From a virus (lineage: Duplodnaviria; Caudoviricetes), in the IMG/VR virus record IMGVR_UViG_3300027707_001276, positions 1-41,767 of that record: a DNA stretch of 41,767 nt; one strand, given 5' to 3'. Made by a program: the position numbers and the translations under genes. Shown one piece after another: positions 592 through 41,065 of the stretch; the stretch's first letter is position 1, and each line of letters opens with the position of its first letter. The notes under the pieces are model-generated. The model ran no database searches, was not told the origin of the DNA, and was given only the letters and a program-made list of their open reading frames with translations.

Positions 592-1398
592 TCACTGCCA
601 GTTGTCAACAACAAATTTGTCCTGAACGTCCTGCGGATTTGGTTCTCCGTGAAACACGGCTATGCTGCATTCTTGATGCGGCCTAACGTCATTTCGAACA
701 GTTTTGAATTTTCTTCCACCATATGCAACAGTGAGTTCTTCCCTGCTTCGGATTTCCCATTTGTAACTCATAATCCATTCTTTGGGCCAGAACTTGATTT
801 TATCTTTGCATAACTTCCATATCCAATCCTGATCTCCCTGAAGCCGTTGTGCATCTGCGGGCTTTTGTTTGAACTGTTCATAGATATGGCTCTGTGTTCC
901 GTGAGTCCAGGCCAATACAGAACTGTTGAGATAGTTCCACGACGGATGAAATTTCCTATTGAAATCATGGATACCTATAAAGCTGTTGGAATGATATCCG
1001 GTGAGCTTGTCCATGTTGGCATGTATGACCACATCAAGGTCGAGATACAGTATTCTTCCCTTCAAAGACAATGTAGAATCAAACATGTGAACCTTGTGCC
1101 ACCATCCCCTAGCATAGTTGGCATTTGGTTGATATATTTTGCGTACTCCGGAAATGTCGTGTTGATCGTCGGTGAGACAAGCAAATTCATAGGGCACTGT
1201 GAGATGCCTCGACACCATGTTGCGCAACCGTTCTACATATTCTCTGCCATACTTGTTACCGAATCTCACGCACAGCACAGTGATAGGATCGCTGTGATCT
1301 GAAGGCACTACTAGATCAGGATATTCTCCACGTGCCGCCATTTTAGCAGCTTTCTTTTCAGCCTTGGCGTGTCTGCGTTGTTCTTTTGACAATTCCAT
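592..1398 (-). CDS. glycosyltransferase, GT-A fold (GT8-like phage family)
   Basis: [28 protein letters not shown] (DxD), [18 protein letters not shown] motifs. Confidence 0.8.
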
Positions 1399-2203
1399 CT
1401 ATGGCTACCAGGTCTTTTAAAATATCGCTAAGGTCATCTAACTTGATCATGTTAGGTCCGTCGCTGGGTGCGTTATCTGGATCTTCGTGACATTCCATAA
1501 ACAGGGTCGACACACAGCCTGTGGCTATAGCAGCTCTCGCCAAGTACGGGACCATGGTCCTATCTCCCCCAGATCTTTCTCCCATTCCCCCAGGCTGTTG
1601 AACAGAATGTGTGGCATCAAAGACCACTGGATAGCCAGTGCTTGCCATAATAGGTAGACTGCGCATGTCCACCACAAGATTATTGTATCCATGAGTGTAT
1701 CCTCTTTCGCATAACATGATGCGTTCATTACCAGTTGAAGCAATCTTTGCCGCAACATTTTTCATATCGTGGGGTGCAAGGAACTGTCCTTTCTTGACAT
1801 TGATAGCACATCCGGTTTCTCCAGCAGCTAATAATAAATCAGTTTGTCTGCATAGGAATGCAGGAATCTGTAGTATATCAATGCCAGCTTCTGCACATTC
1901 TTTGGCCTGCCACGATTCATGAATATCTGTTAAAACAGGCACTCCAAAACTGTGCTTGATTGCATTGAGAATTTGTAAGCCTTCCTCGATGCCAACTCCT
2001 CGTTTAGTACTAATACTAGAACGATTGGCTTTATCAAAACTGCTTTTGTAGATCAAGGGAATGCCAAGTAATGCTGTGATAGCAATAAGTCTAGCACATG
2101 TGGCTTCTGCATGGTCTTGACTTTCTATTTGACATGGTCCAGCAATGAGAACAAAGGGTAATTTGTTACTGATAGTAAGTTGATTAATATTAAATGTACG
2201 CAT
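1358..2203 (-). CDS. kdsA: 3-deoxy-D-manno-octulosonate 8-phosphate (KDO8P) synthase
   Basis: [60 protein letters not shown] at 2203 preferred. Confidence 0.95.
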
Positions 2204-2211
2204 ATTATTAT

Positions 2212-2370
2212 TTACCAATGTCTGATGACACCAGCGATAATAAACAGGTTAGTAATGATATAGATCAGTATGATAACGGTACGAACAAGTGCTACTGAAT
2301 CAGCTTCCTGGTCAGTAGCACCTGACTTTTCACCTAGAGCCTTGGCCCATATATGCCAAAGTCTACGCAA
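2212..2370 (-). CDS. small membrane protein of a T4-like phage family, 52 aa
   Basis: Below the ORF-track cutoff. TTG start gives [52 protein letters not shown], which fills the queD-kdsA gap and has one hydrophobic helix. Confidence 0.75.
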
Positions 2371-2820
2371 TTACGCCTCGTAGATAGCCGAGTTAGCGCC
2401 ATGTTCTGCACATTCTACCCTAACACAATAGCAACGACTACCAGTTTTTTCTCTAATCAATTTATCAGCAAAATTGAAAGCATGTTCGGCAAACTTCTCT
2501 GCACCCACACCATCAAATATTCTGATCTCTGCTAGGTCCAATGCTTCTAGTTCTTGGAACTTGGTTAAATGTGGATCCGATTTATCTAACGCCAACTTAT
2601 GATCAAAGTGATCTTCTAGCCATGCCTTGAGCGGTTTCAGACCACCAAAGTCCACCGCCCAGTTTTTATCATCTAGTTGGTCACATCCAAATGTGAATGT
2701 AAATGCTAGACTATAACCATGTAGTAAATGACAGTGGCTGTGATCTGCATTAGGTTGACGGAATACTGCTGACAGACCAATGTTGTGTCCGTAATGTTTT
2801 GTTGAAAGAAATTTTGCCAT
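2371..2820 (-). CDS. queD: 6-carboxytetrahydropterin / 6-pyruvoyltetrahydropterin synthase (QueD-like)
   Basis: HCHLLHGY (CxxxHG), VDFGGLK, FDHK, GAEKFA, VECAEH motifs; AAGGAG RBS before ATG at 2820. Confidence 0.88.
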   Translation of the reverse strand: MAKFLSTKHYGHNIGLSAVFRQPNADHSHCHLLHGYSLAFTFTFGCDQLDDKNWAVDFGGLKPLKAWLEDHFDHKLALDKSDPHLTKFQELEALDLAEIRIFDGVGAEKFAEHAFNFADKLIREKTGSRCYCVRVECAEHGANSAIYEA

Positions 2821-2897
2821 CTCTAGTCTCCTTTTTGTAGGTAGCAAGTTTGATGACTGCAGAGTGTTTATAGAGGGATGATGCCATAGAGACCTCT
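2821..2897 (-). promoter_or_regulatory. preQ1 class I riboswitch-like element in the queD 5' leader
   Basis: Minus strand reads AGAGG-UCUCUAUGGCAUCAUC-CCUCU-AUAAAC: 5-bp P1, loop starting with U and ending CAUC, A-rich tail, directly upstream of queD. Loop and tail are longer than canonical. Confidence 0.55.
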
Positions 2898-2907
2898 TTG
2901 TGTGTGT

Positions 2908-2943
2908 ATGTAATATTATATTACATTTCTATTTATAATGCAA
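2908..2943 (-). promoter_or_regulatory. overlapping promoters for queD: sigma70-like and late-type, with a palindrome
   Basis: TTGCAT (2943-2938)-17 nt-TATAAT (2920-2915); TATAAATA at 2937-2930; perfect inverted repeat ATGTAATA-tta-TATTACAT at 2908-2926. Confidence 0.55.
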
Positions 2944-3526
2944 TGAATTCCACGTTATTTTTTCTCCATTCCTGCGGCATCTTCCACCCCTGTCTATTAT
3001 AGATAACAAATGTTGTATTGGGATAATGCATGAATACCGATGCGATCTGGTAGACCCAATAGCTAGGATCCACTGCCTGAGAATCTGTTCTAGCATAGTT
3101 CATTGTGCCTTTGTAGATGTTGTTCACACTATGATCAATTGGATATAGATCAAATCCGATTAACGTAACTTCTTGGTGTCCTAACACAGTTGCCAACAGC
3201 ACAGCGTATCCTCCGCTGCCCCAATGTTCGCCTTGATCTTTTTTTAATTCACCTCGAGTGGGTACTTCAGGTAGAAGGTTGATGTTTTTGTTTTTTCTTA
3301 TTTTTCTAAAATAGTGATACCAACGATCGCGCACATAGATTTCTGTGTCTTTGGTATTGATATTGTTTACAGCTTCTTCGACCATTCTACGATCACAGCA
3401 GATCAAATGATTGACATTGAGATCTCTGTGTATGGCATTGCATCCTATAAGAACATGATTGGTGTATGTGCTAATATCAACGTGGCGTCTACTTTCGCCG
3501 TTGCCAATTACCAATGCTCGAGGCAT
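2933..3526 (-). CDS. hypothetical protein, Maf/sialyltransferase-like nucleotide-binding fold
   Basis: VIGNGES, IGCNAI, WGSGGYA, LIGFD pattern resembles DUF115/Maf and CMP-sugar transferases. Confidence 0.5.
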   Translation of the reverse strand: MPRALVIGNGESRRHVDISTYTNHVLIGCNAIHRDLNVNHLICCDRRMVEEAVNNINTKDTEIYVRDRWYHYFRKIRKNKNINLLPEVPTRGELKKDQGEHWGSGGYAVLLATVLGHQEVTLIGFDLYPIDHSVNNIYKGTMNYARTDSQAVDPSYWVYQIASVFMHYPNTTFVIYNRQGWKMPQEWRKNNVEFIAL

Positions 3527-39527: not shown

Positions 39528-39746
39528 TTATAATCTATATGAAATACGACCTTTGCTGAGATCGTAAGGACTAACTTCTACCTTGACACGATCGCCTAGA
39601 ATAATACGAATTTTGTGTTGCTTGAGTTTGCCGCTGGTATAGCAGAGTATTATAGTAGACATATTATCTATCTTTACTCTAAACATATTACCGGGTAGAA
39701 CTTCTTCCACAGCCCCGGTTAATTCAATTATGTCTTCTTTGGCCAT
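39528..39746 (-). CDS. infA: translation initiation factor IF-1
   Basis: MAKEDIIE...LPGNMFRV...SGK...[26 protein letters not shown]; 72 aa. Confidence 0.95.
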
Positions 39747-39978
39747 TTATGTTTTGTCTTTCTTTTTTGACTCGACCGATTCGGCCAGCTTTGTTCCAAT
39801 CGTATCTAACACCGTCTGGGCATACACCATCTACTACAGAGTCAACCCCAAACACACCTACGATTTCAAATTCGCCACCTTGAATAGTGACGAATACATT
39901 TAACTCTTTAGCAAATGCCATTGCCAAATCTAAGTCGGCAAACTCTGTTGATTGTTCTTTATCTATTACTTTATACAT
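39724..39978 (-). CDS. hypothetical phage protein, 84 aa
   Basis: ATG lies 7 nt below a -10 box, so probably leaderless. Confidence 0.7.
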
Positions 39979-39984
39979 GCAACT

Positions 39985-40013
39985 ATTATACTACCATTCT
40001 ATCAATGTGTCAA
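39985..40013 (-). promoter_or_regulatory. sigma70 consensus promoter
   Basis: TTGACA (40013-40008)-17 nt-TATAAT (39990-39985). Confidence 0.85.
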
Positions 40014-40014
40014 G

Positions 40015-40088
40015 TGGTGCTCCAACCAAGAATCGAACTTGAAATACATCCTTACCAAGGATGCGTTATGCCATTTAACTATAGGAGC
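40015..40088 (-). tRNA. tRNA-Thr(GGT)
   Basis: GCTCCTA...CATCC-TTGGTAA-GGATG...TTCGATT...TTGGAGC-ACCA; 74 nt with encoded CCA. Confidence 0.9.
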
Positions 40089-40653
40089 ATTCTATATCTG
40101 CTGCCAATATGAAACGATATTGGTTGCTTTGTACGATGCCTGGACGATGCCATGTTTCACTGGGATATATGATCCAGTGTCCCTGGGTGGGTTTAATAAA
40201 ATATTTTCCGTCTTGTTCTGCACCGTTGGGTGCTATCTCTGTGCCGCAGTAGTCTCGATCTTTGACGTCGTTGGGAATGTGAAGATAGTATATTCCGCTG
40301 AACATTTTACTATTGGGATTTTTTGGATGCCAATGATTGTGCCACAGTTTTTCACGATTTTCGGCACCCTGGAGATTGGTCATAAAACTCCAAGCCATCA
40401 TCTCTGATACTTTGACTTCACGACCTAGATACATGAATAGGCTGAACATAAAGCTCATTCTGTATTTCAACCATACAGGTTCCGGTCGCGCAAATATATT
40501 CTCTTTGGTTTGAAACTTGGGGCTGTTTGTAAAGTAATTGCCATCGGCAATGATGCCCTTGATAATGTTGCAGGCCACGGCATCATCTTGCTCAGTGATA
40601 ACACTGCTAAAATTGAATTTACGAACAAGCTGTGTTTGATCTACTACCTGCAT
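40075..40653 (-). CDS. 2OG-Fe(II) oxygenase superfamily protein
   Basis: WHNH, SGIYYL, IIYPSETWH, RFILA. Confidence 0.7.
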   Translation of the reverse strand: MQVVDQTQLVRKFNFSSVITEQDDAVACNIIKGIIADGNYFTNSPKFQTKENIFARPEPVWLKYRMSFMFSLFMYLGREVKVSEMMAWSFMTNLQGAENREKLWHNHWHPKNPNSKMFSGIYYLHIPNDVKDRDYCGTEIAPNGAEQDGKYFIKPTQGHWIIYPSETWHRPGIVQSNQYRFILAADIECSYS

Positions 40654-40661
40654 GGCGTCCT

Positions 40662-40735
40662 TGGAGCGGGATAAGAGAATCGAACTCTTGACCGAAGATT
40701 GGAAATCTGCTGTTTTACCATTAAACTAATCCCGC
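40662..40735 (-). tRNA. tRNA-Gly(TCC)
   Basis: GCGGGAT/ATCCCGC acceptor, TTTCCAA loop, U discriminator plus CCA; 74 nt. Confidence 0.92.
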
Positions 40736-40742
40736 ATCGAAT

Positions 40743-40970
40743 TTATTCTACTCTTTTAAGATATTCTCGACCTATCTTGCCTTCTTGGATTTCTAGCAAG
40801 GCACTCACCGGAGCATTTACTTGAGTGGTATGTCCTGCTGCCTTGTGTCTACGAGACAATTCTCTAGCTCTTACTGTGGCTATGAGTACAAGATCAAATC
40901 TGTTGCCTCCTGCTTGTTCTACACATTTTTGTGTATCTATGTTAGGACCACGGCTGTCAGTTAGTTTCAT
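40743..40970 (-). CDS. rpoZ: RNA polymerase omega subunit
   Basis: GNRFDLVLIATVRAREL...ALLEIQEGKI. Confidence 0.85.
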   Translation of the reverse strand: MKLTDSRGPNIDTQKCVEQAGGNRFDLVLIATVRARELSRRHKAAGHTTQVNAPVSALLEIQEGKIGREYLKRVE

Positions 40971-40989
40971 TTTTTGCCTTTGTAAAAAC

Positions 40990-41065
40990 TGGTTGCGGGA
41001 GTCGGAGTCGAACCGACGATCTGAAGCTTATGAGACTTCCGAGATACCACCTTCTCCATCCCGCG
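40990..41065 (-). tRNA. tRNA-Met(CAT), initiator-like acceptor
   Basis: CGCGGGA/TCCCGCA with C1:A72 mismatch, A11:U24, GAAGT-CTCATAA-GCTTC, ACCA end; 76 nt. Confidence 0.9.

Follow-up and report, generated by a model that had tools for sequence, protein, structure and literature searches.

The leader of a queD-like gene in the viral DNA examined here (41,767 nucleotides, called the window throughout) is probably a metabolite-sensing riboswitch that turns translation on, its aptamer being a predicted H-type pseudoknot, 45 nucleotides long, at the 5′ terminus of the queD transcript. Without ligand, the 3′ strand of the knot would close a hairpin over the AUG and the Shine-Dalgarno site. A ligand held between the pairs G2893-C2876 and A2879-U2861 would stabilise the knot and pull the 3′ strand away, allowing initiation.

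Results

The queD-like gene and the elements of its leader

The open reading frame behind the leader matches PF01242 (E 1e-13), which bears out the placement of the leader before a phage queD in a preliminary description of this DNA. Its score against the NCBIfam QueD family (TIGR03367) is 34 bits, below the cut-off of 89 bits, and in place of HGH, which we take to be the mark of canonical QueD, it carries an HGY motif; canonical QueD was ruled out on both counts. A PDB sequence search with the protein gave no match. The HGY motif is shared with the QueD of phage iggy, to which the window protein is 47% identical, and its enzyme activity may be read across from that protein. The letters and coordinates first given for the leader were right: AGAGG at 2897-2893, CCUCU at 2876-2872, UCUCUA at 2892-2887, UAGAGA at 2825-2820, GAGAC at 2830-2826 and GUCAU at 2857-2853. 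AUAAA lies at 2871-2867 of the minus-strand leader. The elements referred to below are the following.

2371..2820, minus strand: queD-like open reading frame, 149 amino acids, PTPS/QueD family, HGY-type
2872..2897, minus strand: P1 stem-loop, 5′ strand 2897-2893, 3′ strand 2876-2872, closing pair G2893-C2876
2888..2892, minus strand: L1, first base variable, C2891 invariant, U2890 conserved
2879..2887, minus strand: 5′ strand of the predicted pseudoknot helix, with P2 at 2887-2882, the near-invariant mismatch U2881·C2859, and C2880 and A2879 of P3
2877..2878, minus strand: L2 with the invariant C2877, at the place of the preQ1-I specificity base
2862..2871, minus strand: L3, 10 nt, A-rich, ending in the invariant A2865, U2863 and C2862
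2852..2861, minus strand: 3′ strand of the predicted pseudoknot helix (helix 2861-2853); 2857-2852 can instead pair with 2821-2816 over the start codon
2839..2848, minus strand: inner anti-Shine-Dalgarno part of the predicted OFF hairpin (MFE and centroid structures)
2828..2832, minus strand: Shine-Dalgarno site by sequence, AGGAG at 2832-2828
2915..2943, minus strand: candidate promoters, with a −35 at 2943-2938 (3/6), a perfect −10 at 2920-2915, a spacing of 17 bp, and a TATAAATA box at 2937-2930

The leader motif is conserved upstream of phage queD genes

Viral stretches with a related QueD numbered 597, and the best 80 were taken by the QueD protein alone. A structural descriptor of the leader, which has a single match in the window, at the queD leader, matched 73 of these 80 loci. 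Two of the seven misses were cut by contig ends, four had the motif by eye, and one (L067) was without it. Judged from these loci, conservation of the motif among homologues is far above chance. A pattern scan of viral contigs, covering 7 of 64 collection parts, yielded at least 120 loci; a downstream open reading frame was called in 117 matches and was QueD in 108 of them, at 37-96% identity. The other nine comprised four chance matches (at most 14 bits in the model), three loci with a gene inserted after the leader, where queD is the second gene, and two that were cut short. In a metagenome scan the pattern matched 123 times at 121 loci, with two double counts; queD lay within 1.2 kb in 104 of the 123, 12 were cut short and seven lacked the tail. 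The motif is thus conserved upstream of homologous queD genes, a point on which the preliminary description had made its proposal depend. All phage-like loci together gave 242 distinct aptamer sequences, including one chance parse, and 6 of 141 parsed leader rows were left out as spurious or mis-registered. At L399/L400 the motif occurs twice, about 800 bp apart (1201 and 1998); the first copy, with queD about 840 bp downstream of it, precedes an inserted gene of 236 amino acids. At L178 and L186 the leader and a short spacer are followed by an unrelated open reading frame, possibly a mobile endonuclease, and both loci stop before any queD.

The leader was found before three QueD subfamilies in phage contigs. 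It precedes canonical HGH-type QueD in 10 of 80 loci (six identical) and is absent from the other 70; it precedes a longer type, which we take to be QueD2-like, in 38 of 80 (duplicates included) and is absent from 42. The same RNA is kept before QueD proteins just 29-35% identical to that of the window. It therefore appears, on this comparison, that the RNA is tied to the job of the enzyme and not to one protein surface. The leader was absent from cultured phages with HGY-type QueD, iggy among them (6 loci and 5 whole records), and blastn of the leader against cultured phages returned chance-level pieces only. Since it is missing from many phage queD genes, control through the leader must be dispensable.

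Model searches covered 453 sampled bacterial genomes, 151 apiece from G006's order, G009's class and G008's phylum, with 37 candidates scored per genome; they gave 0, 1 and 0 matches, respectively, a weak negative. The single match (24 bits) lies inside a ferredoxin-like gene, labelled from its sequence, and was rejected. A loose pattern scan of genome contigs (3 of 64 parts) gave an estimated 3600 or so matches, near the chance estimate, and so says little on bacteria; no descriptor match in it scored 10 or more, and nine match or candidate loci reached at most 15.5 bits in the model. In two of four metatranscriptome runs, contigs of relatives span the leader; such contigs reveal neither the start nor the strand nor the level of a transcript.

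A predicted H-type pseudoknot supported by covariation

After removal of duplicates, truncated loci and L067, 46 of the 80 loci were aligned with the window by sequence only in MAFFT, giving 47 rows. In this alignment 92.2% of 578 cells of the predicted pseudoknot were paired; shuffled sequences reached 77.8%, and slid partners 35-47%. Compensatory changes on both sides were seen in 11 of 14 pairs. P1 was paired in 97% of cells with compensatory changes in four of its five pairs, and its closing pair G2893-C2876 was invariant in 47 of 47 rows. The loop-tail helix consists of C2880-G2860 and A2879-U2861, the U2881·C2859 mismatch, and then 2887-2882 with 2858-2853. When the tail was left free in the metagenome pattern, CA was met by UG in 107 of 107 matches and CG by CG in 9 of 9.

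Changes were also counted as independent pairs on a FastTree tree of 191 QueD proteins, a rough proxy for the leader, as the platform family switches 56 times on it. P3 changed in the expected way in 7 of 7 cases (p 0.016), and three inner P2 positions reached p < 0.001. P1 changes went the right way in every inner-pair case, in numbers too few for a test, and the outer P2 positions covaried weakly. G-U pairs are common in P2, which fits an RNA. The P2 of the window is itself weak, with one A·A mismatch and one G·U pair, and the window sequence folded alone does no better than shuffles (z −0.65 to +0.52); the case therefore rests on the homologues. From these we conclude that the leader contains, by prediction, an H-type pseudoknot of about 45 nt made of P1 and the loop-tail helix. 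The preliminary description of a conserved, structured, riboswitch-like leader with preQ1-I-like topology is upheld in this respect.

Around the junction of the helices, ten bases do not vary among the aligned rows: G2893, C2891, U2881, C2880, C2877 (47 of 47 rows), C2876, A2865, U2863, C2862 and G2860. Invariance was counted from the MAFFT alignment alone, because the later parsers required several of these bases. The first L1 base is U in 112, C in 79 and A in 51 of the 242 sequences; the window has U, followed by C. The leaders of L042, L050, L077 and L080 have a 6-nt L3 and an imperfect outer P1 and keep the invariant core.

Predicted competition between the knot and a hairpin over the start region

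Three pairings had been proposed for the leader, and all three occur in the window sequence. The pairing of UCUCUA with UAGAGA at the start codon is full in only 1 of the 73 leaders of the window's subfamily, and that of GUCUC with GAGAC over the ribosome-binding site in 2 of 73; over all leaders, loop-to-start duplexes are shuffle-like. The pairing of AUGGC with GUCAU is conserved. It had been taken for an alternative pairing, and it is instead the predicted pseudoknot helix, extended by CA/UG, whose 3′ strand could also act against the start codon.

Within the subfamily of the window (73 leaders, defined on the 3′ strand of the knot and not on its target), this strand can pair over the start codon as a duplex of 6 bp in 72 leaders. 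Across subfamilies, the P2 3′ strand has two or more bases that can pair with the start region, be it the start codon or the Shine-Dalgarno site, in all but one of 133 leaders (132). A translational mechanism, as suggested, is likely. Among 115 distinct pairs, the hairpin is of an anti-Shine-Dalgarno family in 77, of a long anti-AUG family, that of the window, in 21, of a short anti-AUG family in 14, and of other kinds in three. The best fit for each family was the start region of its own leaders (median −8.2 kcal/mol, versus −4.4 kcal/mol for shuffled targets), and cognate duplexes were better than 95% of shuffles in 60 of 115 only. The base before the AUG and its partner change together.

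With the knot masked, opening the start region took a median of 4.3 kcal/mol instead of 7.8 kcal/mol, and the drop exceeded 1 kcal in 122 of 133 leaders; masking any upstream partner has some such effect. In the window the change was merely from 8.4 to 6.8 kcal/mol, because the inner anti-Shine-Dalgarno stem remains. The Shine-Dalgarno site lies 20 nt 3′ of the knot and outside it, and a consensus scan found no terminator-like site at the window leader. In the modelled structures, knot and blocking hairpin are mutually exclusive; a ligand that stabilises the knot would therefore switch translation on.

Candidate promoters

The weak σ70-like −35 of the window (2943-2938) does not appear in the consensus scan, which needs 4/6; the TATAAATA box is one that we take to be T4-late-like. 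An upstream σ70-like promoter was found in 37 of 72 leaders of the long family and 23 of 31 of the short family; the distance from the end of its −10 box to P1 is 6-9 nt in 29 of the 72 and 14 of the 31, respectively. These counts carry no shuffle control. With the box at this distance, the transcript start in both families would fall at P1.

Among 161 leaders of the anti-Shine-Dalgarno family, just 6 have an upstream σ70 site, and 106 have TAARTA at a distance of 5-11 nt from P1 on its upstream side. The hairpin of this family has a loop that resembles an extended −10 box, with the last T present in 148 of 157, and L3 holds a −35-like hexamer 17-18 bp before it. The C of this hexamer is present in 136 of 162 anti-Shine-Dalgarno leaders versus 5 of 104 in the other families (tree-aware median p 0.008). 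This largest subfamily thus has a candidate nested σ70 promoter, which could possibly bypass the aptamer by way of a short unregulated RNA. Examples are L013:2930-3000 and L037:1799-1867, with the late-promoter-like TAARTA just upstream of P1. In the window's family the nested site was not seen, and a promoter-like site lies upstream of P1. A perfect 8-bp inverted repeat at 2909-2925 of the window, centred on the candidate −10 box and loosely kept in L002 and L028, is possibly an operator or a hairpin.

Pathway genes in carrier genomes

Dihydroneopterin triphosphate (H2NTP) also feeds folate synthesis. The pathway runs from GTP through H2NTP, CPH4 and CDG to preQ0, as given in passages of PMC10484667 and PMC6884629, and the former describes dPreQ0 in the DNA of phage iggy. 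Five near-complete carrier genomes (G001-G005, 343-357 kb) have one strong motif copy each (56-70 bits; next best 16.6). The preliminary description had called for a check for folE, queC, queE and dpdA. Six-frame checks of the 41.8-kb window gave no folE, queE or queC; folE is present in all five carriers, as is a QueE-like gene that scores below cut-off. No TGT or DpdA was found in the five, with a DpdA profile that was positive in two control phages, and no convincing QueC. One other carrier (G462) has a QueC-like open reading frame, and two further carriers have weaker ones. Short PP-loop proteins with a C-terminal cysteine motif (L879:1069-1668, L880, L882 and L883; PHROGs QueC-like, E 1e-18 to 1e-3) could, by their sequences, supply the missing QueC step.

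Discussion

Among known systems close in form is the preQ1-I riboswitch, especially type I. As passages of a review describe it (PMC11625349), the pocket of preQ1-I has a floor of G5-C18, a specificity base C17 before the 3′ strand of P1, and U6 atop P1 (UU in types I and III); A30 of L3 lies at the pocket, followed in type I by the tail base C31, and the bound knot buries Shine-Dalgarno bases or favours termination, so that the switch is OFF. By comparison, the leader is likewise predicted to form a small H-type pseudoknot with a 5-bp P1 closed by G-C, an A-rich L3, a conserved C, mostly as UC, immediately ahead of the P1 3′ strand, and a Q-pathway gene downstream. It differs in L1, where type I has UU and the leader a variable first base and an invariant C, and in its 10-nt L3 ending in YUC. 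Its loop-tail helix is longer (2 bp, the U·C mismatch, then 4-6 bp), its Shine-Dalgarno site lies outside the knot, its predicted polarity is ON, and it was found in phage-like contigs only. The tail has a conserved C, and L3 ends in A-Y-U-C with A, U and C invariant, a register that sequence does not fix relative to A30 and C31.

The leader has some likeness to SAM-II and SAM-V in its U-rich L1 and A-rich L3; both identities were rejected for want of an Rfam match. The THF-II (folE motif) riboswitch (PMC6800512), in which one C and one U (C22 and U44) read the pterin ring according to passages of PMC9881143, sits at the same pathway entry point, and its reading of a pterin by C and U is a suggested parallel to the ligand proposed below. 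It is however a rod of two stacked helices, is OFF and precedes folE, whereas the leader is a pseudoknot before queD; topology, queD context and the lack of an Rfam match rule it out as the identity of the leader.

In phages, one counterpart is the leader pseudoknot of T4 gene 32, which also controls translation; in the parts of PMC10690425 that describe it, the pseudoknot is bound by the gene's own product and represses, whereas here the gene is that of a metabolic enzyme, exchanged among subfamilies. Phage-borne regulatory RNAs are already known from passages of PMC2864571 and PMC9964418. The manA, wcaG and glutamine riboswitch RNAs of cyanophages described there are structured leaders of metabolic genes in large phages, as here, but they are Rfam families, none of which matches the leader, and manA, like the glutamine riboswitch, occurs in bacteria as well. 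Searches of open full texts turned up no description of the leader motif, and the Fremin catalogue of viral structured RNAs could hold it unnamed. The passages of PMC5737381, PMC2864571 and PMC10690425 did not contain queD, nor those of the preQ1 review (PMC11625349) a phage.

The knot could instead be the target of a phage or host protein that stabilises it and frees the start codon, much as T4 gp32 uses a leader pseudoknot, a reading that we consider unlikely. Phage proteins are known to bind leader pseudoknots (passages of PMC10690425), the restriction of the motif to one group of large phages would suit a phage-encoded partner, and invariant loop bases can form a protein site. QueD is an improbable partner, however, because proteins only 29-35% identical to that of the window keep the same RNA; a single motif copy in each of the five genomes speaks against a regulon, and the invariant bases cluster at the place of the preQ1-I pocket.

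Less probable still is a ligand-free knot that acts as a 5′ stabiliser or translation enhancer, where the choice of promoter sets the timing by yielding RNAs with or without the blocking hairpin. The extended −10-like hairpin loop and its −35-like partner favour it. Ten invariant, mostly unpaired bases would not be needed by a purely structural knot, however, and the window's subfamily is without the nested site, its promoter-like site being upstream of P1. That the leader is a preQ1-I riboswitch which turns translation OFF by pairing its loop with the start region, as first supposed, is very improbable despite the G-C floor, the UC before the 3′ strand of P1, the A-rich L3 and the Q-pathway gene, since Rfam models, PreQ1 included, gave no match at gathering in the window or at E ≤ 10 in its region 2600-3200 and 20 related loci, U6 is not conserved, U7 is an invariant C, the proposed loop pairings are rare among relatives, the knot does not include the Shine-Dalgarno site, and an ON switch is predicted.

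For the metabolite-sensing ON switch that we favour, the ligand would come from the FolE-QueD-QueE route and be guanine-faced, with C2877 and an invariant U reading it. The invariant C before the P1 3′ strand, on a G-C floor, matches the α site of preQ1-I and so points to a guanine-faced ligand, while the loss of U6, which reads the minor-groove edge of preQ1, speaks against a shared pocket. Ahead of QueD, an ON switch would be most sensible if it responded to the substrate of that enzyme. Within this reading our first guess, from pathway logic alone and at a little under even confidence, is therefore dihydroneopterin triphosphate or its dephosphorylated forms; a 7-deazaguanine (CDG, preQ0 or preQ1) is clearly less likely, and GTP, guanine or another compound slightly less so again. 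QueD would then be made solely when a precursor common to folate synthesis is abundant.

We tentatively propose, with rather less than even confidence, that the leader belongs to a riboswitch class which is new and restricted to large phages without cultured members. It would have a preQ1-I-like fold with a rebuilt pocket, sense dihydroneopterin (triphosphate) or another pathway intermediate, switch QueD translation ON, and so gate the folate/7-deazaguanine branch in the infected cell. It would also have been coupled anew to three expression platforms and have survived QueD replacement, with a bypassing nested early promoter in one subfamily. Should a metabolite bind the leader, the result would be a riboswitch class so far found only in phages, with a preQ1-I-like fold, reversed polarity and probably a new ligand; the phage would sense host metabolite levels through RNA during infection, and there would be a handle on why these phages have folE, queD and queE-like genes while no DpdA or TGT is detectable in them. 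Because the aptamer is shorter than 50 nt and has a clear consensus and natural compensatory variants, it is testable in days.

Other features of the window

The 41.8-kb virus fragment carries three tRNAs by Rfam scan, which lie with an RNA polymerase omega-like gene and IF-1 at 39528-41065 (minus strand). Downstream of queD, at 1358-2218 (minus strand), are kdsA (KDO8P synthase, above the NCBIfam cut-off) and then a glycosyltransferase-like gene. Seven radical SAM genes, four oxygenases of the Asp/Asn beta-hydroxylase family and one tryptophan halogenase-like gene are densely clustered at 10879-32917.
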